Positions 7,594-32,000 of a stretch of 32,000 nucleotides of DNA are shown in pieces. The notes under the pieces were generated by a model. That model worked only from the letters and a program-made list of their open reading frames with translations. It did no database searches and was not told where the DNA came from. The stretch's first letter is position 1. Each line of letters begins with the position of its first letter. This stretch comes from Raphidiopsis brookii D9. GTDB lineage: Bacteria; Cyanobacteriota; Cyanobacteriia; Cyanobacteriales; Nostocaceae. Position numbers and translations under genes: made by a program. The stretch is taken from contig ACYB01000019.1 of assembly GCA_000175855.1 (NCBI GenBank), forward strand, positions 54,084-86,083, given 5' to 3'.

Positions 7594-7612
7594 CACTGGT
7601 GGGATTAAGTAA

Positions 7613-12877: not shown

Positions 12878-12900
12878 ACCGAACCTTATATTCTACTATT

Positions 12901-13212
12901 CTACCGAAAATCCTCATCCACAAAAAAGTCCCCTTCCTCATCAGCGGAATTCCCAGATCCCCCCATGTTGCCCAACAATTGCCCAAATGATACGGTAATT
13001 AAACCCACCACTACCCAAAAGGCTAACATTAACCCAAAGGGAACTTGTATAGATTGAAAAACTAAAAATCGTAGGGATATTGATGCGGTATTTTGTACGG
13101 AAATTAACGCGATCGCTAGAATCCAAGTAGCTAGAACTACTGATATAAATAGTGTAAATAAACTGGGGAGGTTTTTCATGGTTGAGGAATTAAAAAGGAG
13201 TTGGGGGGTCAT
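12901..13212 (-). CDS. LapA-domain (DUF1049) small membrane protein
   Basis: Two predicted TM helices with an intervening QNTASISLRFLVFQSIQVPFGL, typical of LapA_dom proteins. The start may instead be the internal MKNLPS. Confidence 0.6.
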   Translation of the reverse strand: MTPQLLFNSSTMKNLPSLFTLFISVVLATWILAIALISVQNTASISLRFLVFQSIQVPFGLMLAFWVVVGLITVSFGQLLGNMGGSGNSADEEGDFFVDEDFR

Positions 13213-13236
13213 CGCTGGTGACCCAATCCCTATTGA

Positions 13237-14664: not shown

Positions 14665-14766
14665 TTTGCTACTCTCTCTTGTAGATTATGATTGCTCTAC
14701 TGTTCTTGATTATTCCAGATGTTGATCAAACCATTCCACTGGGACTGATATTTTCTTCCCGGTCGC

Positions 14767-16446
14767 TCACAAGAATTCTATGGGTGGTAATTCGTTGAGG
14801 ATGGTAAACCGAATGTGGTTAATGGCTAATTCCCCAATGGATAACTCTTCCTTGGTTAATCTTTGACCATTACTGCTTATGGTTTCAAAGGAAACCCCTT
14901 TACCAATTTCAATGTGGTACCAACACAGACCCATAAAAAATCTGGTGGGGTAGGGACCATAATCTCCAATGTCGTCCGGATTGGATTCCATAGGTAACCA
15001 ACCAAAATTGGGAATGTAAAACTCTAACCACACATGATTAAAGTCCGGTTGCAGGGGAACGCCTTTTAATTCGGGGTACGGTGGACATTTATATCTACCT
15101 ACTGTGCGACAAGGAATGCCATTTAAACGACATAAAGCTAGTAATACACCCACGTATTCTCCACAGGAACCAACTCCTCGATCTAGCACTATATCAGGTG
15201 TGTCTATATGAGGCTTTATTCCATAAGACAGTTCATCATAAACGTAGTTGCGAATGCTATACATTTTGCGCAGCAGGTTGGTTTCTGAACCCACAGCTTC
15301 ATGAGCAGCACGCCGCACAATGACAGTATTCATTGCCAAATCGTCGTCATCTACTAAGTAGCGTGTTTGTAATTCCAAGGTTGGTTCTGGTATTTCTTCC
15401 GTATCTTTGGGAGTAATACGATACTTAATACCTCGTACTTCCAATAGTGCTTTCCACCCAAATATGTGCCTTTCGCCAGGAACAAGGGTATCAAATTTGA
15501 ACACTGCAATCCTTTGTCCAGAAATTACCTCCTCGGTAAAGGGTAAACCAATGGGATCCACCTGTTTGACCTTTTGGCGCTCAGTCTCCGATGGAAGGGC
15601 AATACGCCATTCAATATCGGTTAAGTAAACTTCTTCTAGAGGAGCAATTTCTTCAACGTATGACATTTCCACTAAATAACCATTAGATAGTCCATATCGT
15701 TTATCTGGATCATAATGGTATTGCAGTGGATGAATAAAGGTTACATCCCGATAGGTTAACTCGTGATTAGGATCAGCATTAGGATTGTCACGAATGTAAG
15801 GCTCCTCCAAAGAGTAGGAGACGTATAGGGTATCTTTATTTGTGTGGTCTTGATGGTATATGGCAATACCGGTTGGGGAGGCAAAGGGAGTAAGGACACT
15901 AAAACGAACTTCTCCAGTAGCCCTATCCATTGAGTAGACAGTTTGTTCTATTTTATCGCAGATCCAAAGGGTTTCCTGACTGACTGCTAAATTTTGTTGA
16001 CCTACTCCAGGGGCGTAGAACCGGGTAATTTCTTTACGTGTGTCTCTGTCAAAAATCAGGATATAACCCATTCTCTGACAGCTAATATAAACAGTGGCAT
16101 CCCAAACAGCAATACCATCAGCATTATATGGTAGAGTGGCAAAGTGTTCCAAACCCAGGGAGTTTAGTTTACATAAATAGACGCTATTACCACGGGTAAC
16201 CCAAAGGGTGTCTTCCCAGACTGCTAAACCAGTGACATCTGTAAATTCTTTTACCTGGTGAGGATTAAGAATTTTACTATTGTCGGAAACCGGGTCAATT
16301 TGGAGTAAATGTCCCTTGAGGGAGTCAATGGCAAGAAGTTGATCTTTAATAAAAGCGATACCATAGATGGTAGCAGCAGTCACTGGTCGAATTGTTTTTT
16401 GCCCAAACATCTGGCTAACATTGAAATTAGGGAGTATTAAACTCAT
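14767..16446 (-). CDS. Transglutaminase-like domain protein with an N-terminal repeat (propeller-like) region
   Basis: C-terminal transglutaminase core GVGSCGEYVGVLLALCRLNGIPCRTVGRY...FNHVWLEFYIPNFGWLPMESNPDD (Cys-His-Asp arrangement). The N-terminal ~200 aa has repeated hydrophobic/Trp-containing strands. Confidence 0.75.
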   Translation of the reverse strand: MSLILPNFNVSQMFGQKTIRPVTAATIYGIAFIKDQLLAIDSLKGHLLQIDPVSDNSKILNPHQVKEFTDVTGLAVWEDTLWVTRGNSVYLCKLNSLGLEHFATLPYNADGIAVWDATVYISCQRMGYILIFDRDTRKEITRFYAPGVGQQNLAVSQETLWICDKIEQTVYSMDRATGEVRFSVLTPFASPTGIAIYHQDHTNKDTLYVSYSLEEPYIRDNPNADPNHELTYRDVTFIHPLQYHYDPDKRYGLSNGYLVEMSYVEEIAPLEEVYLTDIEWRIALPSETERQKVKQVDPIGLPFTEEVISGQRIAVFKFDTLVPGERHIFGWKALLEVRGIKYRITPKDTEEIPEPTLELQTRYLVDDDDLAMNTVIVRRAAHEAVGSETNLLRKMYSIRNYVYDELSYGIKPHIDTPDIVLDRGVGSCGEYVGVLLALCRLNGIPCRTVGRYKCPPYPELKGVPLQPDFNHVWLEFYIPNFGWLPMESNPDDIGDYGPYPTRFFMGLCWYHIEIGKGVSFETISSNGQRLTKEELSIGELAINHIRFTILNELPPIEFL

Positions 16447-16598
16447 ATTATTCCGTCATATTATTCATATTATTTTATTGGTGACCTCCACTGTTTACAG
16501 TAACTAGTCACCAATGGGGTATTTGATGGAATTTCTGCCATCACTCAATTATGATCGAATTTTGTAACCATTTCCCGTAACTTACACAAACTTACACA

Positions 16599-19460
16599 AT
16601 GTCTGCCCATTCTTTGCCTGAAGATGCCGCAGTTTGGCATAGTTTAGAGATAGATAAAGCTTTAGAGCTGCTTGACAGTAATGCTGATGATGGCTTAACA
16701 CCATCCCAAGTTGAAGAACGTTTACTCAAGTATGGTTCTAATGAACTGGAAGAACAGGGTGGACGTAGTCCCTGGCAAATTCTCCTCGACCAGTTCACTA
16801 ACATCATGTTGTTGATGCTGATTGGTGTGGCCTTCATTTCTGGTTTTTTGGACTTTTTAGCCCTACAACAGGGTACTTTAAAGTTAGGAGAAGTTCCTTT
16901 TAAAGATACAATTGCAATTATGGCAATTGTGATTCTTAATGGTGTACTTGGATATGTCCAAGAAAGCCGAGCAGAAAAAGCTTTAGCAGCTTTGAAAAAG
17001 CTATCATCTCCCTCAGTGCGTGTACTTCGCAATGGCAAATTAGCGGATATAGCAGGGAAAGATCTTGTACCCGGTGATGTGATGTTGCTGGAAGCAGGAG
17101 TGCAGGTAGCTGCTGATGGAAGGTTGCTGGAACAGTCCAATCTGCAACTCCGAGAGTCCGCATTGACCGGTGAAGCTGAAGCGGTAAGTAAACAAGCTAT
17201 ACTTACCTTGCCTAAGGATGTTGCATTGGGCGATCGCCTAAATTTAGTTTTTCAGGGGACAGAAGTAGTCCAAGGTCGTGCCAAGGTTGTGGTCACTAAT
17301 ACTGGGATGACAACAGAGCTCGGAAAAATAGCTGCTATGCTGCAATCAGTGGATAGTGAACCCACTCCTTTACAGCAGCGCATGACCCAATTGGGTAATG
17401 TATTGGTCAGCGGGTCTTTGGTATTAGTAGGGATTGTTGTCGTTGCTGGCATTATCCAAGCGCGTGGTTTTAGCAATATACAAGAACTGCTGGAAGTGTC
17501 TTTAAGTATGGCCGTGGCGGTAGTTCCAGAAGGGTTACCTGCGGTAATTACTGTAACTCTAGCTTTGGGTACTCAACGTATGGTGCGCCATAAGGCGTTA
17601 ATTCGCAAACTGCCAGCGGTGGAAACTCTTGGTTCGGTAACGACTATCTGTTCGGATAAAACTGGGACTTTAACCCAAAATAAAATGGTCGTCCAGTCAG
17701 TTTATACTAATCAAAGGAGTTTTCGCGTCACGGGGGAGGGTTATGCTCCTGTAGGTAATTTTCAATGGGAAGGGCAAAATATTGATTTGGAAGACCATCC
17801 AGAAATATCCGGTTTGTTGGTAGCTTGTGCTGTATGTAATGACTCCGTACTACAAAAAGAAGCTGGAGAATGGGCAATTTTGGGAGACCCCACTGAAGGA
17901 GCTTTAATGACCTTGGCGGGGAAAGCTCGTATTGAAAGAGATCAGTGGAATAGTAAATTACCCCGTGTTTCTGAGTTTCCCTTTTCTTCTGAACGCAAAC
18001 GCATGAGCGTGATCTCTCAAATACAGGAAGTGGCCACTGGCAATCCTGGCATTAGTGATGTTGACCCCATAATAGCTGGATTTGTCAGTTCAGAACCCTA
18101 TCTAATGTTCACTAAAGGTTCCCCGGAATTAACTTTAGCTCGCTGTCATCAAATTTACTTGGGTAATGGAAGTTTTCCCATAGAAGAGGAGCAACGTAGT
18201 GAAATTCTAGCTGCCAATGACCAAATGGCTTCCCAAGGTTTACGAGTTCTGGGTTTGGCCTATAAACCTTTAAGGGAAATTCCACCAGAAGCATCGGAAG
18301 ATACCTCAGAAAATGAGTTAGTGTGGTTAGGGTTGGTGGGTATGTTGGATGCACCCCGCCCAGAAGTGCGTGCAGCTGTCGCAGAATGTCGTCAAGCTGG
18401 AATTCGCCCTATTATGATTACTGGTGACCACCAGTTAACTGCACGGGCGATCGCTGTGGATTTGGGTATTGCTGATAAGGATGCTAGGGTGGTTACCGGT
18501 CAAGATTTACAACGGATGACTGACAAGGAAATAGAAGACCAGGTAGATTTAGTCAGCATTTACGCTAGAGTTTCCCCAGAACACAAATTGCGCATTGTTC
18601 AAGCATTACAAAGACGCGGTAGATTTGTCGCCATGACAGGTGATGGGGTTAATGATGCTCCTGCTCTTAAACAGGCTGATATTGGTATTGCAATGGGCAT
18701 TACTGGTACTGATGTCAGCAAAGAAGCCAGCGATATGGTGTTGTTAGATGATAACTTTGCCACCATAGTAGCAGCTACTAAAGAAGGTAGAGTGGTTTAT
18801 ACGAATATCAGGAGGTTTATTAAGTATATCCTGGGTAGTAATATCGGTGAGGTTCTCACCATTGCAGCAGCACCAATTTTGGGTTTGGGTGGTGTCCCCC
18901 TCACTCCTTTACAAATTCTGTGGATGAACCTGGTAACTGACGGTTTGCCAGCTCTAGCTTTAGCGGTGGAACCACCGGAACCAGATGTGATGCAACGTCC
19001 CCCCTTTAGTCCTCGTGAAAGTATTTTTGCTAGGGGTTTGGGAGCTTACATGGTTCGAATTGGTATTGTGTTTGCTGTTATCACCATTATTCTCATGGAA
19101 TGGGCTTATTTCCACGTTCGGTCCGCAACCGGAGAGGGGCTGAGTCCTGAACGTTGGAAAACTATGGTTTTCACCTCTTTATGTATCGCCCAAATGGGCC
19201 ATGCGATCGCCATTCGTTCTAATAACCAACTGACAATTGAAATGAATCCCCTATCCAATATATTTGTGTTGGGAGCTGTAATTGCAACAACTATTTTACA
19301 GTTGTTATTAATCTATGTTCCGCCTCTAAGGGATTTCTTTGGTACCCATTATTTACCTTTACATGAGTTGCTTATCTGTATAGGTTTTAGTGCCTTAATG
19401 TTTGTTTGGATCGAATGCGAAAAAATCTTCTTCCGGGTTATGGGTAAGAAGAATGTTTAA
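16599..19460 (+). CDS. Cation-transporting P-type ATPase (P2A, Ca2+-ATPase-like)
   Basis: TGES-like actuator motif LTGEAE, phosphorylation site CSDKTGTLT, hinge [17 protein letters not shown] in TM4, and 10 TM-type topology. Length 953 aa. Confidence 0.9.
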
Positions 19461-19500
19461 TTAGTAGTCGGGGAAATGGGGGTAAATCTTATAGGTTAAA

Positions 19501-20616
19501 ATGTATTTACAATCTTTAGAGCTGCGCAACTTTCGCAATTACCAAGAACAAAAAGTTGAGTTTACAGCACCTAAAACTATCTTGGTTGGTAATAACGCTC
19601 AGGGAAAATCTAATTTATTGGAGTCAGTAGAATTACTAGCTACATTGCGATCGCATCGTTTAGGCAAAGATAGTGATTTTATTCAGGAAGGTCAAGACAT
19701 GGCGCGAATCAATGCCATATTAGACCGGACAACGGGAATTAGTAATTTAACCCTGAATTTGCGTCGGAATAGTCGTCGCACGGTGGCAATTAATGGTGAA
19801 ACAGTGCGTAGACAAATGGATTTTCTGGGCATTTTAAATGCTGTCGAATTTTCTAGTTTAGACTTAGAATTAGTTAGGGGTAGTCCCGCCATTCGTCGGA
19901 GTTGGCTAGACACTCTGTTAGTACAGTTGGAACCCGTCTATGCCCATATTTTGCATCAATATAACCAGGTTCTGCGTCAACGTAATGCGTTTTTAAAAAC
20001 CATTCAACAGAAGGGAATCAAAAATCATGATTCTGAATTAGCAATTTGGGATGCCCAGTTAGTTACTACGGGAACAAAAGTTATGAGAAGGCGAAATAGG
20101 GCAATTCAGAGACTTGGTCCCATTGCAACACATTGGCATTCTAGTATCAGTGGTAAAATGGAAAAACTAGAGATAAATTATATGCCCAATGTGCCAATAC
20201 TAATAGATGAACAACAGGAATTACTACAATTTTTTTTGGACAGAGTGCAAGAGCATTCTGCTATAGAATCATATCGAGGTACAACTTTAGTTGGACCTCA
20301 CCGAGACGAAATAGAATTAGTAGTTAATGGAACTCCCGCTCGTCAATATGCTTCCCAGGGTCAGCAGCGTACATTGGTTTTAGCCTTAAAACTGGCGGAA
20401 TTACAGTTAATTGAAGAAGTGGTTAATGACACTCCCTTATTATTATTAGATGATGTTTTAGCCGAATTGGATCTTTCACGCCAAAATCAACTATTGGATG
20501 CTATTCAAGACAGGTTTCAGACATTAATTACCACCACCCATTTAGGAGCATTCGATGCTCAATGGTTAAATTCCTCACAAATTCTTTTTGTCAAATGTGG
20601 GTCTATTTCCCAATAG
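19501..20616 (+). CDS. recF: DNA replication and repair protein RecF
   Basis: MYLQSLELRNFRNY.., Walker A GNNAQGKSNLLE, signature ASQGQQRTLVLALKLAE, Walker B LLLLDDVLAELD. Confidence 0.9.
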   Translation: MYLQSLELRNFRNYQEQKVEFTAPKTILVGNNAQGKSNLLESVELLATLRSHRLGKDSDFIQEGQDMARINAILDRTTGISNLTLNLRRNSRRTVAINGETVRRQMDFLGILNAVEFSSLDLELVRGSPAIRRSWLDTLLVQLEPVYAHILHQYNQVLRQRNAFLKTIQQKGIKNHDSELAIWDAQLVTTGTKVMRRRNRAIQRLGPIATHWHSSISGKMEKLEINYMPNVPILIDEQQELLQFFLDRVQEHSAIESYRGTTLVGPHRDEIELVVNGTPARQYASQGQQRTLVLALKLAELQLIEEVVNDTPLLLLDDVLAELDLSRQNQLLDAIQDRFQTLITTTHLGAFDAQWLNSSQILFVKCGSISQ

Positions 20617-20677: not shown

Positions 20678-23098
20678 TTAACCACTAAGAAGACCTATTA
20701 TTCTATCCTCTGTAGAACATCCTTCAATCAGTTCCCGAAAATAGTCATTTAATGACCTCTCACGGCTGATTGTTTGCAGAATAATTCTATCATTTTGAAA
20801 ATGATTAATTACTGCTTGCGCCAATGCAATTTCCTGGGAACCAGTTTGACAGAAGTTATTATTGTAAGCACGAAAAGTCAAGAGATAAATTAGGGATAAA
20901 AAAGCATTCTGCTTATATTGAGGATCCAAGTCTTGATAATTTCTACTGAGTAAATAATTAAGAATTTTTATAAAGTGTTCCTGATAATTTAGAGAGATTG
21001 AAGCAACATTAAAATCAAAATTATAGTACCAAAGTAAAATTCTGCCATATCCCCATAGATATTTTTCCAGATTATACATGGAATCAAATAACATGAAATA
21101 CCTATCCTGCAATTCTTGACTTACTGCAATTCTAGAGAAACACTGTAGATACTCATTTGATAAACCGTTATCATACCTGGTATAAAGACATCTTAATTGG
21201 GATAGAGAAAATAATCGATCTAATAGCAGATTCTGCGAACATATATATTGGGAGAATCGATACAATTTGCCAGTGAAAATTATTAAACTAAGCAGTAAAC
21301 CTCTTTCATAAGAATTTAGTCTTCTTCTATGGCGATCGCATGCAGAAAACACTTTAGATATTAAATTAATCATTCTATGGAGTTGAGCATTTTCCAACTG
21401 TTGGGCCAACAGAGTAACATTGGGATCATGGGATGAGATATCTACAAACTGTAGTAAATCAGGTTGTTGACTTAGGCATTGATAAGCATTTCTAAAACTA
21501 GCAGTTAACTCCTCATACTGATTCCTAGATTGATCCAGTCCAGTGGCAATTGCATTTAAATAAGTGGGGAAATCTTGAAACCTATGATTAACTGTCAATC
21601 GCCCAATTTGGGATAAAGATCTTTGTTGACGATTTTGATTAATGTTTTCAGGTGGAATATAACTGTAAAATGTACTTTCACTATGTCTATCCACCAAACT
21701 AGTTTGAATAATGTACTGATTATCCAAATCCCTAACGATCAATTTAGGAAAAGATCCTGGTTGTAAACGAAAATTAATCTGAACTAAAATCTCTTGAGGA
21801 TTTTCATTATCTTCATAGTTTTGAATTTCAATTTTATAGTCTTGAGGAATACCATTTATGCAGTAATCACTATCATTTACCCTGATAGGTAATTTGGCAA
21901 TTCTTGTCCCACTGGGAATTCTCATAAAATCCTGATTTCTATTAGGAATACTTCCCACTAATACCGTTTCTCTCCCCTCAAAAGAAATAGCATCTCTTTC
22001 CTCCGATAGTTGAATCCAGACCTCCTGATTATCAATAGCGATAGCAAATTCAATTGTATCCAGATAAATACCAAACAGAGGGAAACCTTGTCTATTTCTA
22101 TCTATCCATAGTTCTGAAAAGTTTTGAATATTGGGTTTAAGCACCATAAACCTAGATAAGTCTTGATCACTTACTTGTGGTCTTAATCTCTCAAAAATAT
22201 TATATTGACCAACTAACACAAACTGATATTGGGAGTACTGATGGGCAATTTGATTGAGTGGAGCAAGATTAATTTGTCGATAAACGACTTCGGCAATGTC
22301 TAATATGCTGACGGTAATTCGTTTATAAAAAATCTCCTGATTATGGTATATTTCAATAATCAAACTGATGGACTTCTCATCAATATGAGATTGAACTATT
22401 TTGAAAAAGTTAATTCTCTGTAAATAATTAGATAAATGGCTAATGGTTTCCAGGTTATTTGACAATTCAGGAAACTGTCTTAAAAAGATTCTTGATATCT
22501 GAGAACATATCTGATTATATATTGCTTGACAATCATAGTTATTACTAAATGGAATTCTATTTCTGGTGTCGAGAATAGGAATTAAATGGGGAGTATTTTC
22601 TTGTCTTTGAAAACTAACAGGAATCAAAGTAGAAGTATCAAAACTGTCCAAATCGACAAATACTAGTGGTTGATAAGATTGACTACGAGCTTGATATTCA
22701 GAAATTTCCCCATAGTGGTTCCAATAATGATAAGCACTAGCATATAAATATCCATCCCTAGATCCAATAATATTACTCATACTCAAAGTCAATAAATCCA
22801 ATGTATCACTGACTATATATAGACGCTCCTTGTCCCCTGTAAATAATTCAATTCCCAGGTGAAGATAATCTGGTTCTTGTGGGTTATCTTGTAGGTGACT
22901 AGTATTAGTAGTTAAATGAGATGGAAGATCATTATTAGCTACTGGTGCAGATAAATAGGGGTAAGCAGAATACCTATCCAAAATCCTAGTTTTATACTCT
23001 TGGCTGGATTGGGGGATTATTGCTTCAGATGTACCTCCAAACTGATGAGCATACTCACAAGCATCAATATAAGATTGCAAATTAAATAACTTAGTCAT
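20678..23098 (-). CDS. Large hypothetical protein (806 aa), last gene of the island; function unknown
   Basis: ATG 23098 preceded by AAGGAA, 14 nt after the PLD stop. N/Q/Y/I-rich. I see no P-loop, HKD, PD-(D/E)xK or other motif. Contains the only perfect HIP1 site in the island (21332-21339). A 37-nt piece of its 3' end recurs at 31356-31392. Confidence 0.7.
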   Translation of the reverse strand: MTKLFNLQSYIDACEYAHQFGGTSEAIIPQSSQEYKTRILDRYSAYPYLSAPVANNDLPSHLTTNTSHLQDNPQEPDYLHLGIELFTGDKERLYIVSDTLDLLTLSMSNIIGSRDGYLYASAYHYWNHYGEISEYQARSQSYQPLVFVDLDSFDTSTLIPVSFQRQENTPHLIPILDTRNRIPFSNNYDCQAIYNQICSQISRIFLRQFPELSNNLETISHLSNYLQRINFFKIVQSHIDEKSISLIIEIYHNQEIFYKRITVSILDIAEVVYRQINLAPLNQIAHQYSQYQFVLVGQYNIFERLRPQVSDQDLSRFMVLKPNIQNFSELWIDRNRQGFPLFGIYLDTIEFAIAIDNQEVWIQLSEERDAISFEGRETVLVGSIPNRNQDFMRIPSGTRIAKLPIRVNDSDYCINGIPQDYKIEIQNYEDNENPQEILVQINFRLQPGSFPKLIVRDLDNQYIIQTSLVDRHSESTFYSYIPPENINQNRQQRSLSQIGRLTVNHRFQDFPTYLNAIATGLDQSRNQYEELTASFRNAYQCLSQQPDLLQFVDISSHDPNVTLLAQQLENAQLHRMINLISKVFSACDRHRRRLNSYERGLLLSLIIFTGKLYRFSQYICSQNLLLDRLFSLSQLRCLYTRYDNGLSNEYLQCFSRIAVSQELQDRYFMLFDSMYNLEKYLWGYGRILLWYYNFDFNVASISLNYQEHFIKILNYLLSRNYQDLDPQYKQNAFLSLIYLLTFRAYNNNFCQTGSQEIALAQAVINHFQNDRIILQTISRERSLNDYFRELIEGCSTEDRIIGLLSG

Positions 23099-23112: not shown

Positions 23113-24291
23113 TTATCGTAATAAGTAAAGTTGGTTAATAAGTTGGTTAATTTTATTAACATCAGTGGTTTTATACATTAAATCATATAGGGTCGAATTA
23201 GAGTTAGAATTATAATATGAATTAAAACTAAAATTAATTCCCCCGATATAAGCTACTCGATTGCCTAAGATGGTAATCTTAGCATGGAGATTATCAACAG
23301 CGTGAAAGTTCTCAAGATTAAATCTTTCGATATAAAACCTTCGATTGTTTTCAGATACACTAGAATTAATAAAAACACTGGTATTTGAATTTAGATAAAC
23401 TGCCATTTCCTGTGAAGGTTTGAAATCACGACTGTAAATTCTGACCTCCATATCTCGTGGAAGATTGCGCCAATTTTCGACCACGTCCCTTTGATATTGC
23501 GCTGGAGTTAAAAAGTTTGATTCTACGGAAAATTCAGCGCCATATCTCTTTTGGGGAGAATACATCACAGAACGTAATCTAAAACCGCAACCGTTAGGCT
23601 CAGGAAAGACTTGATATTTGCTCCGGGTGTACCAAAAAGTTTGAAAAAAATTAATCAAATTTTGATGTTCAAAATTATTACTAAAAATTATTCCCGCCTC
23701 CTTATTAAAATCTAAACTTCCTCGTGTGAGATTAGAGGAACCTAAATAAGCGGAGCGATCAGAAATATAGGTTTTTAAATGAAAAGCACCACTCCGAATA
23801 GATACATTACTATTCAACAGCATTTTCAAACAAGATTTTTTCCGTTCATCACTTATTCTATATCTTTCTGGAATGCTAATATGTTCTAATATCTGTTCAT
23901 CAATACGATCTAAAAGCTCATTGTTCAAATCTGTTAAAATCCAGACTCCTTTTGGTAACTCTAATGATTTTTGACAAATTAATTCTGTTAATTCTTCATC
24001 CTCTATAATATAACTAGAGACCAGTAGAAATTCACTAGCTTCCTGAATGATTTTGTAAATAGTATCCCGACTTTTACCATGATTTCTACCATTATGAATT
24101 ACAAATTCAAATTGGGAACCATGGGTAGTATCTGGTTGTAATTCACTGGGTAAGTTTATGGTTGGATATATGTGACGCTCATGTCTTGACCGATATTGTT
24201 CGACTAAATAACTAACATCCTCTGACAAAGTTGATATGTGGTCTTGCTGGGTATTATCTCTTATATGACTATCTTCATTTAAGCGCAGCAA
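23113..24291 (-). CDS. Phospholipase D (HKD)-family nuclease-like protein, two PLD repeats
   Basis: First motif HLKTYISDRSAYLGSSN (His codon 23779-23781) fits HxK(x)4D..GSxN. Second motif HAKITILGNRVAYIGGIN has HxK but Gly in place of Asp. The track start is TTG, and there is no in-frame ATG until residue 157. Confidence 0.8.
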   Translation of the reverse strand: MLRLNEDSHIRDNTQQDHISTLSEDVSYLVEQYRSRHERHIYPTINLPSELQPDTTHGSQFEFVIHNGRNHGKSRDTIYKIIQEASEFLLVSSYIIEDEELTELICQKSLELPKGVWILTDLNNELLDRIDEQILEHISIPERYRISDERKKSCLKMLLNSNVSIRSGAFHLKTYISDRSAYLGSSNLTRGSLDFNKEAGIIFSNNFEHQNLINFFQTFWYTRSKYQVFPEPNGCGFRLRSVMYSPQKRYGAEFSVESNFLTPAQYQRDVVENWRNLPRDMEVRIYSRDFKPSQEMAVYLNSNTSVFINSSVSENNRRFYIERFNLENFHAVDNLHAKITILGNRVAYIGGINFSFNSYYNSNSNSTLYDLMYKTTDVNKINQLINQLYLLR

Positions 24292-24397
24292 TGTAATAGC
24301 AGATCTTAAGGTTAAAGATAATTCGTCTACAGAAATCCAAATCTTGACTTTTTGATGAGTTTCATTTGATAGATAACAATCCCAATTGATAAAAAAA

Positions 24398-24949
24398 TTA
24401 ACTCAATTCATGAGATTTTAAAGCATAATCTATTTTTTCAATATCAGATAATTTTTGCCAGTATTGCCAACTATTATTCCATATTATCTGTATAAAATCT
24501 AAGTTTAGATCTGGATAGTTAGGTTCTGAAATTGTTATAATGTAACTTCCCATCTGTTCACAAACATCACTTGAAAAAACTGGGAGTTGTGGATCCCTAG
24601 GTGTTAGATTCAGATTTCCCTGTTCACAGATAAAATTATAGGCATATTGATAAATATCCAAGTTATCCAATTGAGATTTTAGGGGTTTTAATAATTTCAG
24701 AGGTGGTACTTGGTAAATATCACTTTCCTTAGTAACACCACGGGAATTCTTGCATAAGTTAATTAGCACCGGTTCCGGAATGAAATCTAACCCAAAAGAC
24801 TGACGTAACAATTGAGGTGTTCTGCGGTGATATCGTGTTCCTATTGCTTGTACCTCATGGATTAAATGGTTTAAAGTCCTGGGTATAACTTCTGTTGCAT
24901 TTAACAGTGACCTTGCAAATTTTCCCGATAGTTCAATTTGAATTTTCAT
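24398..24949 (-). CDS. Hypothetical protein (183 aa)
   Basis: ATG-initiated ORF on the same strand as the island genes, with about 105-125 nt gaps on either side. No recognisable motif. Confidence 0.5.
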   Translation of the reverse strand: MKIQIELSGKFARSLLNATEVIPRTLNHLIHEVQAIGTRYHRRTPQLLRQSFGLDFIPEPVLINLCKNSRGVTKESDIYQVPPLKLLKPLKSQLDNLDIYQYAYNFICEQGNLNLTPRDPQLPVFSSDVCEQMGSYIITISEPNYPDLNLDFIQIIWNNSWQYWQKLSDIEKIDYALKSHELS

Positions 24950-25073: not shown

Positions 25074-26787
25074 CTAAATAACAACTTGAGTTTCTATAGA
25101 TAAAGAGGATTGATATAATAGTGATCTGATGGGAGAACGAGATTCCTGCCATAAAACATGATCACCAACTAAAAATAGCTGATCTTTTGCTCTTGTCAGT
25201 GCTATGTTAATATCTTCCAAGGCAATATTGTTAGGACCACCAGAACAAGCAGTCATACAATTCACAATGATAATTCTTCTTTCCGCACCACTCCATTCTT
25301 TGGCTGTACCAATAAATATGGGACTAAATTGAGGATGGTTTGCAGTTAAAACCTCCCTGAGATTATCTCTCTGTGTTTCAGAAAATGTAATGATGCCAAT
25401 TTCCGAGATAATTTCTGAACTCAGAGTCTGAGTCAAGTTTTCTACGAGTTCGTAAATTTTCTCTCCGACTGATTGACTTACCGTCAACCTTTCAGACATA
25501 TTTTTCCAAGTTACTCCCCTGGCAATTTGACTCAGATTAGAAACATTATAATCAATATTGGGGTAATGAGTATATACCCAATGATCACAAATAACAGGAT
25601 AAACTGTCTCAGCTATTTTTGGATGTAGTCTAAACTGTTCTCGCAATTTGTAAACATAAGCTGGAGACAAGTTTTCTTGCAACCATTGAAAACAGTTAAA
25701 AAACTTACCGGAAAAAAGAATTTCTTCTAGAATTATGATTTTCTTGATGTTGTTGTATGTGTGAATAACATGAAAAATATCTTCTGGGGATATCCTCACC
25801 AAATAACACCAGTTTTTGACACAATCCTGATAAAAAGATTAATTCTCTCCAATTCAGAAGATTCGCTTCCTCCACTATGATCAAATCAAAATCACTATCC
25901 CATAAAGGTTTATTTTCCAGTTGCATAAAGTCAGAAACAGTTCCCATAATAGTCACCTGCGGATTTGCCACAAGTTGATTGGCAAGTTCTTCAATTTCTA
26001 CTTCCGAAAGATTGTTATAAATTTGCATCAATCTTAACTGCTCTTGAAGAAAAGGTAATAATTGCTGGAGACGATGGGCCAATAATTGTAACCGGGGCTC
26101 TGCTAGATGGGCAAATTCTGTAAATTCGGATCGTAATATTTCCATTATTTGCTCATTTGTTTTATCTACAATTTCTGGCAATAATGTCTCTAATATAGCT
26201 GGTGTTCTCAACTTGGCTAATTCTCCGTCTGGTAATAAATATAATGGCAAATAGTCCATTCTTGTTCGCGCCAAATTATGCAGGATATGATCCCGTAACT
26301 GATTTACCATCCGTTGAGAATAATTTTCTTGTTGAGACAATAAAAATGGATAAGTTGTGAGATTGTAATAGGGGTTTAAAGATGCCAAATTATGAGCTAA
26401 AATCAAAACCTTATAGGAACAGTCTATAGCAGCTTGGACAAGATTTTTGGCAATAGCAGTTTTTCCCGTTGCTGCTGTTCCAGAAATCAGAGTAATAGGG
26501 CTATTGGAAAGGGCCATTTCTAGCGCTATTTGTTGACTTGCACTGAGAAAGGTTTTATATTTAATGGAAGGAAAGTTTAAAGATGCTCTCTTCTGTGAAT
26601 AATATCCTTGGTTACATAGTGTTTCGATGATTAAATTTGTGGGTAATGATGGAGAGTTATAAATATAGTTATAAATTTCGACCAGTTTTTCCGATTGTGC
26701 TTGGCTAATTGGTGAAATTTCATCTGATTCATATATTAAATTTTGTAATTGCTGTCGTAAGTTTTGTCTAGTAATTCTATTAGTCAT
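25074..26787 (-). pseudogene. Superfamily-1 helicase, Upf1/DNA2 (AAA_11/AAA_12)-like, split by a frameshift
   Basis: Track ORFs 25705..26787 and 25074..25802 overlap by 98 nt in different frames. The N part has Walker A GTAATGKT (26458-26481) and Walker B DLIIVEEA. The C part has LREQFRLHPKI (YRMHP-like), TAKEWSGAERRIIIV (QG.E-like) and NIALTRAKDQLFLVGD. Its start overlaps the stop of the 125-aa ORF (ATGA). Confidence 0.8.
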
Positions 26788-27161
26788 AATGTAAATCCTC
26801 CAACTACTTCAATTAAGGTATTAAAAATTATTTCCACTGTTTGAGAAAATCCCTGTTCTGTAAAATTCTCAGGTAACTTTACCAATCTCAAGTTGGGGAA
26901 TAGTTCCTCATAGCTTGGACTATCATCTAGACTATAATTTTGAGTGTGATCTTGTAAATATAAGACTATTGCTCCGGCGAATAAACCATTATTTTCTAAT
27001 TCCTGATTCCTTAAATTATGCAAATAATAATAACCCATTTGATTGATTACATCTCGACTGGGAAGATACCAAAATACCCAGATAGGAAATTGTAACTTAT
27101 TGGAATTTAGCTCCATGGAATCTAGCTGATGAATTTCTAAAGTCAACATCCAATCACCCAT
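26784..27161 (-). CDS. Hypothetical 125-aa ORF (possibly the detached C-terminal part of the McrC-like gene)
   Basis: ATG 27161, with no convincing RBS. Its reading frame is open upstream to 27218 and overlaps the end of the preceding fragment. Its stop overlaps the helicase start. Confidence 0.45.
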   Translation of the reverse strand: MGDWMLTLEIHQLDSMELNSNKLQFPIWVFWYLPSRDVINQMGYYYLHNLRNQELENNGLFAGAIVLYLQDHTQNYSLDDSPSYEELFPNLRLVKLPENFTEQGFSQTVEIIFNTLIEVVGGFTL

Positions 27162-27181
27162 TGCTATATTAGACGGTTTTT

Positions 27182-28407
27182 CTAACCCAAATACACAAAC
27201 CCGGGTTTGTAAAACACCCTAACCTTAATATTTTGATCTGGACTTAGATAACGTCCCTGGTCAGGAATTAACTTGCAGCTCACACCTACGGTTGGATCTA
27301 TATTTACCCCTTGTAATCTTAGCAGACCGACTATCAAATAAATATAGATAGCATCTGCCAACAAATAATTTCTAAACCCCACAAATTCTCTTTTTCATGC
27401 TTTTTTCGTATGTATTCCAAATAAGCTTGATAAAAACTCTTGTATATGGTATTTTGCTGTAAAACATAATTTGGCTTGGTGAATTGATAACCTCTGTTTT
27501 GAATAGTCTTAACTGTTGGCAGTTGTTGAAATAAATCAATTACTAATCTGATTTTGTTAATTTGTGATCTAAACTGATTAGCGTTACTTATTTCATATTG
27601 AACACAATTCAAATGGAAAATTCGGGCAAAATAAACCAGGAATTTATTTTCAGGGGTGTTGAAATCTTGATAGCGTTTAATACCCATAAGTTCTTGTTTT
27701 GAACCTGCTTTTTCTTCAGGAGTTGAGCCAGGTCTGCGAATATAATCACGTAAACAATAACTATCCATCTCCTGAATTTTACCCACAGGAATAAGTTCCG
27801 CTTTTCTTGTAAGTTGATGACGCAATCTAGAACCGATTAATTCTAATTTTTGATGCAGTTGATATTTGTTATCTAAACTAATGACAATTGGCAAATTAGC
27901 GTCTTCTATATTTACAGAGTCTAGTTTTTGGGATAGTCCACTCAGTAAAATATTAGCTTCAGAGTTGATCCTAGTTGTTCCACTAGATATATGTGTAAAC
28001 ATGCCAATAAATAACCGGACTAATTCGGATGCTGTTCTATCCAAACGATTTCCTAATCTGTGTTCCCATTCCGGGATTTCCACTTCTTCTTTAATCGTTT
28101 CTAAGTCTAAAACATCAGTAATAGATAAATTATAGCCTTGTCCGGGAATTGCCAAACTTAACACATATCTTAAACTTGCATGATGGTCATGATCATAGTG
28201 TAAATCAGTTGGTTGTAAGTAAGGAAATCCCACCTCATAAATTCCTTGACTAATGGGAATAAACCAAGATGGTAGGGATAGAAGTTCATCTTCATCTAAT
28301 TCCAGTACAAGAATTGGACGGTGACTAGCTTCCAGGGCGAAAATATCTGATATCAGGGGAGATTGATGTTGATTAAGATAAGCAAACAAACTGGGATATA
28401 TTCTCAT
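27182..28407 (-). pseudogene. McrC-like / DUF2357-type partner of the McrB-like NTPase, apparently frameshifted
   Basis: Track ORFs 27334..28407 and 27182..27382 overlap by 49 nt. The start ATG shares one base with the upstream stop (TAATG at 28405-28409). The internal block RYQDFNTPENKFLVYFARIF resembles the (D)TPEN(R)F signature of McrC/DUF2357 proteins. The second fragment contains YLSPDQNIKV, a possible PD motif of a PD-(D/E)xK fold. Confidence 0.6.
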
Positions 28408-30521
28408 TATGCTTCCTCATCCTCATACACCAAACCTTGCCAACTAAATTGTCCGTAACGTCCTTCTTTGGCTTTGTCAAAAGCCTTAATCAATGGTTGG
28501 TCATTGATTTTATCGATAATTTCCTTCATTTCTTGCAGTTGTTGATGTGCTTCATCAACCATCACACCCCGTAATTTTGGCAATAATTTTTGTCCAAACT
28601 GATCCGCAAGAGCAAATTTAAAGGACTCGGAATCAATACCATTAACTTCTGGATAGTTAACAACATATTGAGCAATAGCTTGATATACACGATGGGCGAA
28701 GGGATGTCCCATTTTTTCCATGACTTTATTGGCTTCATTCAGGTAAGATTCGACCTCTTTAACCACATCCGATTCAGGAACTGGAGTTCTCACCCAGTTT
28801 TGAAAATCAGAATAGGTTACGTAACTGGAATCCCGATTATTAACCAGATTATCAGAATGTTGATTAACAGTTATTTGTTGACCCGATCTTTGACGCAATT
28901 TTAAATTTTGGGGTCTACCAAAAGTTAAAACATTTGCTTTATCCAAGACCTTATCTGACAAGGTTTGTGTAGTTTCATCCTCATTCATGGTTCCCACAAA
29001 TAAAAAGGCTTTAGGAATTTCTAACCGCCGTTCGCTTTCAGCAATTGGCAGACTACCAACATCGATTTCTAAATAGGTGGCATGATTGCGACGACTTTCT
29101 AATTTAGACAAGAACTCACTGAAATAATATTCTACCCTAGCCAAGTTCATTTCATCCAGTAATACTATAACTATTCTATTACTCATTTCTGGATCTTTAT
29201 ACTGATAGAGTCCTCTCATTAATTGGGTGGGTTTAAATTTCTTTTCCAGATAGTTATAAAACCCCTGTAAATCTTGAGGAGAATCCCAGCGTGGTTGTAC
29301 AGCTAATGTGAGTAATTGGGCTCCAATATAATTGGCGTATCTTTGGGGAAGTTCACTTTTACCGGTACCACTAATACCCGCTAAAATCACTAGAGCAGAA
29401 ATATCTTGTACCTTTAAAGATGTATGAAAAGCCTTAATTGTTCGGCTTGAAAAACTTAATCCTTCACTCCTGAGACTGGTAATAAAGTTTTGTATAAACT
29501 GGGTTTCTCCTTCTAGTTGTCTAACTTGTCTAGGTAAGTTGGTCCATAATTTCTCCCGTAAAGGTTCTAGGGCAACTCTACCACTATTTTCTATCTCTCT
29601 AATTTCTCCTCTGAGGTTGGCAATTGTTGTCTCAATCTCCAGTTTTGTTTGCTGTAAGTTATCAGTTTCAGTTTGTAGGTTATGATTCCTAGTTTGTAAA
29701 TTATTTCCTTCGTTTTCCAATTCTCTTAATCTTGATTCTTGATCTCTAATGGTTAGTGTTAAGCTACGGTATTGTTCTCTTAATTCTATCAGTTTTTGAT
29801 AGTTATTTTGATTTTCCTCAATAGTTTGTAAAATCCGCTGTTTCTCTAATTCTAATCTGTCTATTTCAGGGTTTAGTTGACTCACTTTTGCTTCATAATC
29901 TTGTTTTTGACTAAGAATTGCATCATAGGTAAAACGTAATAGTTCTAATTCAGCAGCACGTTGTTCCAATTCCTGAGACTGATTTGTTAGTTCTTGAACC
30001 CGTGCATTTAACCTATTTAAATCAGCTTTTTGAGAAACTATTTGTGACTCAACCGAATTAAGTTGTAATCTTTTAGAGTCTAAAGATTCGACTTGAGAGT
30101 TGAGTTGTGTAATTCTTGCTTCTAAATTGTTTCTATCAATTGTAGATTCTTCAATACTAGTACGCAGTGACCTTAAGTCAGCTTTAGATGCTTCAATTCT
30201 TCGTCCGAGTTCTTCCAATTCAGACAAATTGGGATTTTCCTGATTAATTACACGAATACAATTTTCCAGTTTTTGTTTTTCTTGTGTCAGAGTGGCGATC
30301 GTTTTATTGAGTTTTTTTTCCTCCAACTTACTGACAACAGAAGCTCCCATGATTGCTCCTGTGGTAATTCCCAATACTCCCACTCCAATTCTTCCAGTAA
30401 TACCACCCACACCAGCGATACTAATTCCAAATATAATACCACAGCTAAGCCCACCAACTATCATCCAATCTTTCATATTAATCAATACCTTTTTGAATGT
30501 AAAAGTAACTGTTTGTAGCAA
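28407..30521 (-). CDS. McrB-like AAA+ (AAA_5) NTPase with N-terminal glycine-zipper membrane segment and long coiled coil
   Basis: P-loop GISGTGKS (29355-29378). LAVQPRWDSPQDLQGFYN, Walker B VLLDEMNLARVEYYFSEFLS and FVGTMNEDE are all arranged as in McrB-family GTPases. Residues ~18-65 are Gly/Ile/Val-rich (GxxxG spacing). Residues ~66-345 are heptad-like and Q/E/L/N/R-rich. The track start is TTG 30521, and ATG 30476 (MKDWMIVGG) is more likely. Confidence 0.8.
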   Translation of the reverse strand: MLQTVTFTFKKVLINMKDWMIVGGLSCGIIFGISIAGVGGITGRIGVGVLGITTGAIMGASVVSKLEEKKLNKTIATLTQEKQKLENCIRVINQENPNLSELEELGRRIEASKADLRSLRTSIEESTIDRNNLEARITQLNSQVESLDSKRLQLNSVESQIVSQKADLNRLNARVQELTNQSQELEQRAAELELLRFTYDAILSQKQDYEAKVSQLNPEIDRLELEKQRILQTIEENQNNYQKLIELREQYRSLTLTIRDQESRLRELENEGNNLQTRNHNLQTETDNLQQTKLEIETTIANLRGEIREIENSGRVALEPLREKLWTNLPRQVRQLEGETQFIQNFITSLRSEGLSFSSRTIKAFHTSLKVQDISALVILAGISGTGKSELPQRYANYIGAQLLTLAVQPRWDSPQDLQGFYNYLEKKFKPTQLMRGLYQYKDPEMSNRIVIVLLDEMNLARVEYYFSEFLSKLESRRNHATYLEIDVGSLPIAESERRLEIPKAFLFVGTMNEDETTQTLSDKVLDKANVLTFGRPQNLKLRQRSGQQITVNQHSDNLVNNRDSSYVTYSDFQNWVRTPVPESDVVKEVESYLNEANKVMEKMGHPFAHRVYQAIAQYVVNYPEVNGIDSESFKFALADQFGQKLLPKLRGVMVDEAHQQLQEMKEIIDKINDQPLIKAFDKAKEGRYGQFSWQGLVYEDEEA

Positions 30522-30909: not shown

Positions 30910-31050
30910 ATGGCGCGTCTAGCATTGCTGAGTGTATCAAACAAAACAAATATAATTAATCTGGCTCGAACCCTAGTAGAAGAATTTGATTTTGATATCA
31001 TCAGTAGTGGAGGAACTGCTAAAACCCTCAAAAATCCTGGGATACCTGTA
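30910..31050 (+). pseudogene. purH: purH 5' fragment (bifunctional AICAR transformylase/IMP cyclohydrolase, first ~47 codons only)
   Basis: [47 protein letters not shown] matches the PurH MGS-like N-terminus. Similarity stops after GIPV, and the ORF then reads through unrelated sequence to a stop at 31104. Confidence 0.7.
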
Positions 31051-31081
31051 AATGGCAGGTTGTTACTAAAGTTAAACCTAC

Positions 31082-31357
31082 TCCAGATTGACGAGTTCCC
31101 ATGACCTCTCCTGGACCGCGAAAGCGCATATCCATTTCAGAAATAAAAAACCCATCTTGTGACTGCTCTAAAACCTTCAATCGTTGTTGAGCATCCGGGT
31201 TTCTGGAACTACTCATTAAGAGAAAATAGGACTGGGCCATACCTCTACCTACGCGCCCCCGTAGTTGGTGTAACTGGGATAGTCCAAATCTCTCCGCATG
31301 TTCAATTAACATAACAGTAGCATTAGGTACGTCTACCCCTACTTCTACCACAGTAGC
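31082..31357 (-). pseudogene. recG: recG 3' fragment (SF2 helicase motifs V-VI region only)
   Basis: Track ORF 31028..31351 reads (T)[37 protein letters not shown]...[17 protein letters not shown], which is the RecG C-terminal helicase core. The upstream ~600 codons and the normal C-terminal tail are both missing. An in-frame TAA lies immediately upstream. Confidence 0.75.
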
Positions 31358-31392
31358 TGATTATTTGCAGAATAATTCTATCATTTTGAAAA
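31356..31392 (-). repeat. 37-nt duplicate of the 3' region of the 806-aa gene
   Basis: GCTGATTaTTTGCAGAATAATTCTATCATTTTGAAAA matches 20765-20801 with one mismatch. In the intact gene this encodes HFQNDRIILQTIS. Confidence 0.85.
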
Positions 31393-32000
31393 GGTCTTCC
31401 AATTCAGGTAAATTGGGATTTTGTTGATTAATGACAAGAACGCGATGTTCCAATTCCAGGGACTGATTTGTTAATTCCTGAACCCGTGCGTCTAACCTAT
31501 TTAAATCAACTTGTTGAGAAACTATTTGCGACTCAATCGAATTAAGTTCTAAGCTTTTAGAGTCTCTTCTGGATTCTAAAGATTCAACTTGAGAGTTGAG
31601 TTGTGTAATTCTTGCTTCTAAATTGTTTCTATCAATGGTAGATTCTTCAATACTAGTACGCAGTGACCTTAAGTCAGCAGCACGTTGTTCTAATTCCTGA
31701 GACTGATTTGTTAGTTCTTCAATCCGCGCGTCTAACCTATTTAAATCAGCTTGTTGAGAAACTATTTGCGACTCAACCGAATTAAGTTCTAATCTTTTAG
31801 AGTCTAAAGATTCAACTTGAGAGTTGAGTTGTGTAATTCTTGCTTCTAAATTGTTTCTATCAATTGTAGATTCTTCAATACTAGTACGCAGTGACCTTAA
31901 GTCAGCAGCACATTGTTCTAATTCCTGAGACTGATTTGTTAGTTCTTCAATCCGCGCGCCTAACCTATTTAAATCAGCTTGTTGAGAAACTATTTGCAGC
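31361..32000 (-). pseudogene. Partial coiled-coil ORF paralogous to the N-terminal half of the McrB-like gene; open to the window edge, with a chimeric 3' end
   Basis: Not in the supplied track because it is open at the right edge. My translation of the minus strand is ..ADLRSLRTSIEESTIDRNNLEARITQLNSQVESLDSKRLELNSVESQIVSQQADLNRLDARIEELTNQSQELEQRA (repeated) ..LELEHRVLVINQQNPNLPELEDLFKMIELFCK*, with stop TAA at 31361-31363. The last ~12 codons are the 806-gene fragment read out of frame. Confidence 0.6.
31449..32000 (-). repeat. In-frame tandem repeat, 228-bp (76-codon) unit, about 2.4 copies visible
   Basis: Unit starts at 31675 and 31903 (period 228). The first copy (~31449-31674) carries a 12-nt in-frame insertion. 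Unit 31675-31902 differs from 29951-30178 of the intact gene at about 10 positions by my hand alignment. Confidence 0.85.

Follow-up and report, generated by a model that had tools for sequence, protein, structure and literature searches.

A 32,000-nucleotide (nt) stretch of the Raphidiopsis brookii D9 genome (GenBank assembly GCA_000175855.1, contig ACYB01000019.1, positions 54,084 to 86,083; hereafter the window) carries on its reverse strand a five-gene operon consisting of cnuB, cnuC, cnuH, cnuE and a conserved gene in the cnuD position (Table 1). The first of these genes, cnuB, codes for a McrB-family GTPase with a long coiled coil and a glycine-rich hydrophobic N-terminus, and this N-terminal element is the subject of the present analysis. 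Given the NxD signature of the GTPase (NEDE) and the conserved operon, in which cnuB and cnuC are accompanied by a helicase, a PLD nuclease and an 800-amino-acid (aa) partner, sequence comparison identifies the gene as encoding CnuB of a type IV restriction system, namely a CoCoNuT (coiled-coil nuclease tandem) of Type III-C. CoCoNuTs, which are known from sequence analysis only, belong to a major McrB branch defined by a shortened NxD motif, usually followed by E or D, and are set apart within it by long coiled coils fused to the GTPase (PMC11090510; Bell, Sahakyan, Makarova, Wolf, Koonin, eLife 2024). Type III-C is mainly cyanobacterial, with a CnuE that contains two PLD domains after a wHTH-like N-terminal part, a CnuD (Hsp70-like NBD/SBD and HEAT-like repeats) encoded as a separate gene and no TerY-P module (PMC11090510). 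The locus described here agrees with the published Type III-C in its NxD motif followed by E, the long N-terminal coiled coil and absence of a DNA-binding domain in CnuB, a DUF2357 McrC homologue without the conserved nuclease motif, an SF1 UPF1-like helicase, a two-PLD effector, a separate large fifth gene, the cyanobacterial host and the lack of TerY-P (PMC11090510). It differs from the type as published in the Gly-rich, two-segment hydrophobic element that precedes the coiled coil in most members.

The close homologues of CnuB are cyanobacterial, and the five-gene order recurs in those cyanobacterial loci (one per species) whose length suffices to reveal it, in an intact locus of Cylindrospermopsis raciborskii (L081) and on plasmid pSYSX of Synechocystis PCC 6803. 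The cnuB-cnuC pairing is kept in most of 80 loci, and cnuH is conserved wherever a cyanobacterial locus extends far enough to show it; the N-terminal 183-aa part of cnuE is homologous to intact CnuE. The families searched for as marks of TerY-P (kinase, phosphatase, VWA) were absent from the window open reading frames (ORFs) scanned. CnuC of Type III-C has been described as keeping a nuclease-like domain in which the PD-(D/E)xK catalytic motif is inactivated (PMC11090510). Among 16 orthologues, no (D/E)xK motif in the CnuC C-terminal domain was conserved at 90% or more, and CnuC of the III-C clade appears to lack the nuclease catalytic residues. The Synechocystis operon (L082; pSYSX 11348-20500) contains all five genes, and a second GTPase match lies elsewhere on pSYSX; judging from gene order and strand names, the operon genes are probably slr6012-6016 and slr6071-6075, and slr6071;slr6012 and slr6073;slr6014 appear among the proteins detected in a Grad-seq supplement. 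Rfam and tRNA scans returned nothing that bears on the cnu locus.

Table 1. Features of the cnu locus and of related loci. Positions refer to the window unless another locus is named; KD19, Kyte-Doolittle mean over 19 residues; WW, Wimley-White octanol scale.
Feature	Position	Strand	Basis and remarks
cnuB, whole gene, McrB-family NxD GTPase	28407..30476	-	689 aa from ATG 30476; homologue starts at MKD; PADLOC match
Hydrophobic segment 1 of CnuB, residues 4-23, WMIVGGLSCGIIFGISIAGV, GxxxGxxxGxxxA, predicted transmembrane helix	30408..30467	-	KD19 2.11; Hessa sum +0.8; WW -4.6 kcal/mol
Short Gly-rich turn, residues 24-29, GGITGR, holds R29	30390..30407	-	sequence
Hydrophobic segment 2, residues 30-48, IGVGVLGITTGAIMGASVV, GxxxGxxxG, marginal as transmembrane helix	30333..30389	-	KD19 1.86; WW +0.6; Hessa sum +2.1
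Coiled-coil region, residues 52-307	29556..30323	-	AlphaFold2 helices 57-77 and 86-307; heptad periodicity; conserved columns; heptad-multiple indels
21-nt (one-heptad) tandem repeat, 2.5 copies, within the coiled coil	29653..29704	-	repeat scan; site of a 21-nt inter-strain length difference
AAA+ GTPase core, residues 356-520	28917..29411	-	Walker A GISGTGKS nt 29355-29378; Walker B LDEMN; NEDE nt 28974-28985
C-terminal helical domain of CnuB, residues 521-689	28410..28916	-	homologue alignment and AlphaFold2
cnuC, McrC homologue, DUF2357 (2.8e-8)	26784..28407	-	Pfam; three frames here; intact version 541 aa in L081
cnuH, SF1 UPF1/DNA2-like helicase, AAA_11 (below cut-off) and AAA_12 (4e-17)	25074..26787	-	Pfam, PADLOC; split by 1-nt insertion ~25707
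cnuE, N-terminal domain and two PLD nuclease domains	23113..24949	-	PLDc_2 6e-18, second PLDc motif 1.9e-8; PADLOC; split ~24401
Conserved fifth gene, 806 aa, cnuD position, intact	20678..23098	-	gene order
3' end of upstream CnuB-like coiled-coil ORF, 228-nt repeats, 2.4 copies, stops without GTPase domain	31361..32000	-	5' end beyond the window
Putative CnuA genes of Type III-B loci	L049 8130-9740; L063 8206-9639; L064 8100-9713; L066 8342-9742; L078 8376-9713; L086 6680-8020

The cnuB frame is listed as open over 28407..30521 on the reverse strand and comprises 704 aa if counted from a TTG. The likely start is the ATG at 30476 (MKDWMIVGG...), because close homologues all begin at this codon or a few residues 5' of it and because a 1-nt indel at 30505, relative to a second C. 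raciborskii strain, breaks the frame upstream. Both observations also answer the concern, raised in the initial annotation, that the true start might lie downstream of the Gly-rich region, since the ATG lies upstream of it. The hydrophobic block described there at residues ~18-65 matches the translation exactly in sequence, although its numbering was based on the TTG, and from the ATG it occupies residues 4-48 (nt 30333-30467). The protein thus consists of a 45-residue Gly-rich hydrophobic stretch (one charge), about 255 residues of heptad coiled coil and an intact McrB-type GTPase, so that the order first proposed for this ORF, a membrane-type N-terminus and a coiled coil ahead of the P-loop of a McrB-like NTPase, was confirmed by translation, AlphaFold2 and Pfam. 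AlphaFold2 models were of the monomer, run for the full-length protein with a 45-sequence alignment and for residues 1-120 with 38 sequences.

The GTPase core is intact. The P-loop GISGTGKS spans residues 367-374 within a Pfam AAA_5 match above the cut-off (residues 363-507, E 3e-8), an alignment of 45 homologues shows no variation in the motifs GISGTGKS, LDEMN and MNEDE, with N498-E-D500-E501 forming the NxD motif followed by Glu, and PADLOC matched the protein to the candidate PDC-M26A (4.5e-42). The region ahead of it has a local 3.5-residue hydrophobic periodicity of 0.815, against 0.186 +/- 0.059 in shuffled sequences (above 500 of 500 shuffles, about 10 standard deviations), and drew coiled-coil-type family matches in both Pfam and PADLOC scans. 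Its length differs from that in the second strain by +42 and -21 nt, each a whole number of heptads. Together with the AlphaFold2 helices, these results show that a coiled coil does take the place of the DNA-reader domain in this McrB-family NTPase; this exchange, presented as unusual in the initial annotation, is the already published architecture of Type III-C CnuB and a known hallmark of the family rather than a new feature (PMC11090510).

Conserved Asn-Pro motifs interrupt the helices of the coiled coil at SQLNPEIDRLE (residues 81-82, nt 30231-30236) and NQxNPxLxxLE (residues 202-203, nt 29868-29873), and R181, Y184, D185 and P203 are invariant midway along it. AlphaFold2 draws residues 86-307 as a single helix with a dip in confidence at 190-240, and the conserved mid-coil site may be an elbow or hairpin apex. 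On the strength of this dip and of the four invariant residues, the coiled coil could be bent back along its own length, a geometry in which the GTPase ring would lie at the membrane.

The N-terminal element, residues 4-48, reads WMIVGGLSCGIIFGISIAGVGGITGRIGVGVLGITTGAIMGASVV and contains 13 Gly, with R29 as its sole charged residue. The glycine-zipper spacing first noticed in this translated, membrane-type N-terminus is present as GxxxGxxxGxxxA at residues 9-21 and GxxxGxxxG at residues 36-44 and is conserved in homologues. The two 19-residue windows have Kyte-Doolittle means of 2.11 (segment 1) and 1.86 (segment 2), and segment 1 is membrane-competent as calculated on the WW scale (-4.6 kcal/mol). 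The proposed room for two membrane passes therefore holds for segment 1 and is in doubt for segment 2, which is marginal and for which AlphaFold2 did not confirm a hairpin. The best-kept part of the N-terminus in the homologue consensus is nonetheless the motif LGSxTGAxxGA in segment 2.

The element is widespread among relatives. A hydrophobic N-terminus was found in 102 of the 120 closest homologues, and among 49 cyanobacterial loci (one per species) the element is fused to CnuB in 39; three loci lie at contig edges and a few encode it just upstream. Homologues thus keep the segment, a point on which the initial annotation had made its proposal depend. Within III-C operons, CnuB is the sole protein with such a hydrophobic segment. 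Mean pairwise identity among homologues is 32-36% in the transmembrane (TM) region, 44-49% in the coiled coil and 87% in the GTPase, and as far as alignments indicate, composition and small-xxx-small spacing are conserved in the N-terminus rather than sequence. In one Pleurocapsales-type locus (L083), a separate 103-aa gene (7647-7958) comprises two hydrophobic segments and a short coiled coil and lies 43 nt upstream of the gene for a coiled-coil GTPase of 890 aa, which has no TM segment and opens with the coiled coil itself; in another (L026, ~2648-3020), a hairpin and short coiled coil are likewise encoded by a separate gene 5' of the coiled-coil GTPase. Both arrangements look like gene fission with retention of the module, and because the module stays as a gene of its own when split off, a spurious N-terminal extension is unlikely. 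The split-off genes also resemble CnuA of Type III-B, which combines a TM segment with a coiled coil.

A search with the GTPase domain against 1.84 billion cluster representatives recovered a tight cyanobacterial group at 60-74% identity, followed by a large group at about 50%. We assign the latter to Type III-B from its gene content, because its loci encode a helicase-Vsr/DUF559 fusion and a separate coiled-coil protein that we read as CnuA. In locus L049, for example, the helicase and a Vsr-like MTES_1575/DUF559 nuclease form one fusion protein, the separate coiled-coil protein precedes cnuB, and the genes after it are cnuC and one of 861 aa. CnuB has exactly one N-terminal helix of strong hydrophobicity in 119 of 131 III-B representatives and 29 of 31 loci, and in each of the six loci checked (Table 1) the proposed CnuA just upstream of cnuB also has one N-terminal TM helix, a feature that we did not find in the published CoCoNuT text. 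The two clades differ in the form of the element. The hydrophobic span has a median of 22 residues in III-B and 37 in III-C; the median WW value is -10.7 kcal/mol in III-B, against -4.0 for segment 1 and +0.9 for segment 2 in III-C; a glycine-zipper motif occurs in the first 80 aa of 8% of III-B proteins and of 82% of the 120 close cyanobacterial homologues; and the mean net charge of the N-tail is -0.70 in III-B (acidic or neutral, none positive) and +0.55 in III-C (44% positive, 15% negative). The flank that follows the hydrophobic span is positive in both.

Type III-B accordingly shares with the operon studied here the nearest GTPase relatives (~50% identity), the coiled coil, CnuC, a large gene in the CnuD position and an N-terminal membrane element; it differs in that this element is a single, strongly hydrophobic, zipper-free helix behind an acidic N-tail, that a helicase-Vsr/DUF559 fusion takes the place of a separate PLD partner, and that there is an additional CnuA with a TM helix. 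A further relative, on the Klebsiella quasipneumoniae plasmid pKqs_SB610_4 (L085, 7657-10320), encodes a CnuB with the motif MNQDE and no hydrophobic segment anywhere (maximum KD19 0.78), next to a kinase and PP2C phosphatase (TerY-P), a CnuH-like protein, a putative CnuE and a cnuC interrupted by IS1. By its gene content this locus is Type II or III-A-like, and in the sample, which includes this one Type II/III-A-like relative, the membrane element is a mark of the branch formed by III-B and III-C. Many plasmids of enterobacteria carry related copies, annotated as 'ParA'.

Among the systems that invite comparison, canonical McrBC of E. coli K-12 shares the AAA_5 core, the Walker A and B motifs, the sensor Asn and a McrC partner encoded directly downstream; it differs in its NxxD motif (here NxD), in its soluble reader of modified DNA (here a membrane element and coiled coil) and in the active PD-(D/E)xK nuclease of McrC, which is apparently inactive in CnuC here. 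The tail of Zorya ZorA, part of a proton-driven motor, and ShdA of Shield likewise lead from a TM helix into a long coiled coil that links the membrane to cytoplasmic nuclease activity. These likenesses are analogies: neither protein has a sequence relationship to CnuB, and in ShdA the nuclease is fused directly to the coiled coil. Four Pfam families, Gly-zipper_Omp (PF13488), Gly-zipper_YMGG (PF13441), Rick_17kDa_Anti (PF05433) and CyanoTRADDas_TM (PF20712), have two short Gly/Ala/Ser-rich hydrophobic helices with GxxxG spacing as seen here. To our knowledge, members of the first three occur mostly as small lipoproteins of the outer membrane or as toxins, and not as N-termini of cytoplasmic NTPases; CyanoTRADDas_TM is a two-TM domain of cyanobacterial conflict systems.

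The text of the family-defining paper says nothing of the conserved membrane element of CnuB (PMC11090510), a comparison that covers the running text. In the eLife text and the latest preprint, TM helices are mentioned just for CoCoPALM, EssC, ShdA and one accessory protein with four TM helices (PMC11090510), and we found no other paper in the literature searched that discusses a TM element in CnuB. CoCoPALM, with an NxD McrB GTPase, a TM helix and a coiled coil, is the sole published precedent for a membrane-anchored coiled-coil McrB (PMC11090510), so that the description in the initial annotation of coiled-coil McrB relatives as soluble does not apply to all of them: CoCoPALM has an FtsB-like TM helix with a coiled coil (PMC11090510), and Type III-B has a strong TM helix. 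CoCoPALM is, however, defined by its FtsB-like domain and by signal-peptidase or pilus-assembly partners (PMC11090510), in place of which a helicase and a PLD nuclease are found here. Membership of the window protein in CoCoPALM was rejected on the basis of these partners and of the DivIC/FtsB matches, which were weak in 3 of 38 N-termini (best E 0.013, below the cut-off) and absent for the window protein itself; no signal-peptidase family was found among the operon and neighbour proteins scanned.

We consider it probable that the protein is a Type III-C CnuB in which the N-terminal 48 residues act as a membrane anchor and oligomerisation module; association of the N-terminus with a membrane is, on its own, highly probable, and given such association, a helical hairpin is clearly preferred over a single pass combined with an interfacial zipper helix. 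Segment 1 would form a TM helix, inserted into the plasma or thylakoid membrane, and segment 2 would most likely be the other arm of an N-in/C-in hairpin, bringing the chain back into the cytoplasm. GxxxG faces classically mediate helix-helix packing, and here they would pack the two helices against each other and also the hairpins of neighbouring subunits. The chain would then continue as the ~255-residue coiled coil into the NxD-type AAA+ GTPase, which by homology with McrB should form a hexamer and bind CnuC; a hexameric McrB-type ring with hairpins would therefore have a 12-helix bundle. The probable effector is the helicase CnuH together with the double-PLD nuclease CnuE and the conserved 800-aa partner in the CnuD position. 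Anchoring could place the system at the site of phage entry, keep the nuclease off the nucleoid or couple the system to membrane-bound translation.

The topology proposed here draws chiefly on the comparison of the two clades. Type III-B looks like a single pass with N-out/C-in orientation and III-C looks N-in, so that III-C would require a second crossing for the chain to reach the cytoplasm; the change in N-tail charge between the clades is the best argument for this difference. The positive flank after the hydrophobic span in both fits a cytoplasmic coiled coil and GTPase. A role in anchoring and oligomerisation is favoured over one as an effector because the III-B equivalent has no zipper, identity in the TM region is low and the operon has its own nuclease arm. 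Of the tethering at the envelope suggested initially, anchoring in the general sense is upheld by the position-equivalent TM helix without a zipper in III-B and by a TM-region identity that lies below that of the coiled coil, which is what an anchor under compositional constraint would be expected to show.

Several observations weigh against this assignment of structure and role. Some members of the III-C clade (e.g. P0042/L084) are without the element altogether, and the N-terminus of Type II/III CnuB has been said to carry 'only coiled-coils' (PMC11090510). Segment 2 is marginal on both free-energy scales (Table 1), as in the clade as a whole, where 28% of members have a WW value below 0. 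In the full-length AlphaFold2 model, residues 1-63 are without confident structure (predicted score in the local distance difference test, pLDDT, 25-34), and the model of residues 1-120 is helical only at 4-17 (pLDDT ~51), with 21-48 as low-confidence coil and segment 2 at pLDDT 40-46; for the hairpin, this outcome is neutral to weakly negative. The turn carries a positive charge (R29 here, often R or K in orthologues), which would also fit the cytoplasmic loop of an N-out single pass. None of the glycine-zipper Pfam families reached its curated cut-off in the window protein, 38 orthologue N-termini or 10 Type III-B proteins: PF13488, PF13441 and PF05433 gave no match to the window protein and at best 23.6 bits for an orthologue, against a cut-off of 25. 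Below threshold, Gly-zipper_Omp and Gly-zipper_YMGG each matched 7 of the 38 orthologue N-termini and CyanoTRADDas_TM, to which the window protein likewise had no match, matched 5, and apart from these and the DivIC matches, the Pfam scans of the N-terminus yielded coiled-coil noise alone, making a family assignment impossible. The literature contained no experimental localisation data for CnuB that we could find. Finally, the 806-aa fifth gene had no Pfam match, and its 16-sequence profile gave chance matches alone against PDB sequences, so that an Hsp70-like CnuD nature was not confirmed by sequence.

Among the competing explanations, the one that fares best retains the membrane and changes the topology: segment 1 would be a single N-out/C-in pass as in III-B, and segment 2 a non-spanning, interfacial or juxtamembrane oligomerisation helix. 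The marginal values of segment 2 (WW +0.6; clade median +0.9), the AlphaFold2 helix limited to residues 4-17, the frequent R or K in the loop and the single pass of the sister clade III-B all speak for it. Against it stand the N-tails of III-C, which are neutral to basic and in some cases strongly so (e.g. MTNKPENALVNKVVKKVPSW), as opposed to those of III-B, which are never positive, a difference that argues for N-in and with it for a second crossing; the III-C span of ~37 almost uncharged residues compared with 22 in III-B; and the Kyte-Doolittle value of segment 2 (1.86). On balance we regard this topology as rather unlikely.

Two further proposals go beyond anchoring. Channels built from identical subunits, such as VacA and MscL, have a lining of glycine zippers, and McrB assembles into hexamers. 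A CnuB hexamer might, by extension, sit on a bundle of 6-12 TM helices (in III-C, a glycine-zipper ring like those of homo-oligomeric channels), with movements of the GTPase and coiled coil coupled to the membrane, and so sense phage genome entry or envelope damage or gate an abortive-infection pore; we offer this as a speculative and improbable possibility. That the 12 zipper helices of a CnuB hexamer form a latent pore, opened or released on activation to cause abortive infection, is in our estimate very unlikely. The conserved GxxxGxxxG spacing, above all in segment 2, the sub-threshold glycine-zipper and CyanoTRADDas_TM matches and the channel precedents are in its favour, and the CoCoNuT authors have proposed abortive infection as a back-up for the family (PMC11090510). 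On the other side, the III-B equivalent is a single helix of the ordinary kind, very hydrophobic and zipper-free, N-terminal conservation is low (32-36%), the operon has a dedicated two-PLD nuclease effector and no signal for cleavage or release is apparent; nothing in this analysis supports the N-terminus as a released pore or toxin, the second mechanism envisaged in the initial annotation.

Comparably improbable is a soluble role, in which the Gly-rich N-terminus would be flexible or self-associating, for instance as a hydrophobic plug that bundles the coiled coils or as a low-complexity linker. Such a segment would account for the very low AlphaFold2 confidence at residues 1-63, the marginal free energies, the family matches that all remain below threshold and the Gly content of 29%. 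However, 45 residues with one charge and a Kyte-Doolittle mean of ~2 are atypical of soluble disorder, segment 1 has a WW value of -4.6, the charges on either side conform to the positive-inside rule, the equivalent position in III-B relatives holds an unmistakable TM helix (WW -10.7), and the element is retained as a small gene of its own when split off. It is scarcely credible that the stretch is untranslated, with the start downstream, or is cleaved off as a signal for export or of a lipoprotein: the annotated start of one database entry (P0006) is an internal Met and the tripeptide 'LSC' is faintly lipobox-like, but the amino-acid pattern is conserved across genera and includes a 3-nt indel within segment 1 that keeps the frame, conservation of the Cys does not extend beyond Cylindrospermopsis, the n-region has no net positive charge and an exported GTP-dependent AAA+ protein is implausible. 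A lipoprotein or Sec signal was accordingly rejected, given the unconserved Cys, the non-basic n-region and a GTPase that has to stay cytoplasmic.

CoCoNuTs form a large branch of McrBC systems. What is new here is modest: a membrane element that is conserved, that is proposed to form a hairpin in III-C but one pass in III-B, and that a Type II/III-A-like relative lacks. If true, the membrane-anchored form of CnuB would constrain where and how CoCoNuTs act and predict different localisation for otherwise similar subtypes, and if the coupled bundle outlined above were true, it would amount to a membrane-coupled form of type IV restriction. The localisation hypothesis is directly testable, as Synechocystis PCC 6803 carries the full operon. 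For annotation, genes labelled 'AAA family ATPase' or 'hypothetical' become recognisable as a five-gene defence operon.

The state of the operon in the window was assessed against the intact C. raciborskii locus L081, which shares 98.3% identity with the window over 12.3 kb; an exact match to the window protein is absent from the assembly index, and a 92% identical strain was used. Relative to L081, cnuC has 1-nt deletions at ~27380 (in a G run) and ~27214 (in a T run), cnuH a 1-nt insertion at ~25707 outside any homopolymer and cnuE a 1-nt insertion at ~24401 next to a T, whereas cnuB and the fifth gene differ by in-frame indels only. A ClpC-like gene elsewhere in the window (5080-7532, forward strand; Clp_N, then AAA/AAA_2/ClpB_D2-small) is also split, into two ORFs near 5270-5275, apparently by a missing A in an A5 run (GAAAAATT is present and GAAAAAATT restores the frame). 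The clpC gene is reported to be essential in cyanobacteria. Because a gene with this reported role is split as well, in a homopolymer run, we suspect that the operon frameshifts are homopolymer assembly errors rather than signs of gene decay.

Upstream of cnuB the window is a mosaic with fragments of purH (~30910-31087) and of the 3' region of recG (31078-31356), beyond which lies the end of a second CnuB-like ORF (Table 1). In L081 the order is recG, purH, cnuB-long and cnuB-short, all intact. The two tandem cnuB genes of that locus (5721-9683 and 10001-12052) are identical over their first 60 residues, including the hairpin, and encode proteins of 1320 and 683 aa, the coiled coil of the longer one being enlarged by 6.5 copies of a 240-nt (80-aa) repeat. 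Database cnuB alleles range from 660 to 914 aa in C. raciborskii, and given this range and the repeat expansion in L081, coiled-coil length is highly polymorphic and repeat-driven.

The remainder of the window consists of housekeeping genes, namely ABC/MlaD, a PMT-type glycosyltransferase, an aldo-keto reductase, phosphoglucomutase, a P-type ATPase and a 371-aa SMC_N/AAA_15 ATPase ORF, and for this reason is no obvious multi-system defence island. It also includes a staphylococcal-nuclease-like ORF (1307-1888, forward strand) and a tRNA-Leu (CAG) gene (399-482, forward strand) that overlaps the predicted start of a SpoU-type methyltransferase ORF.

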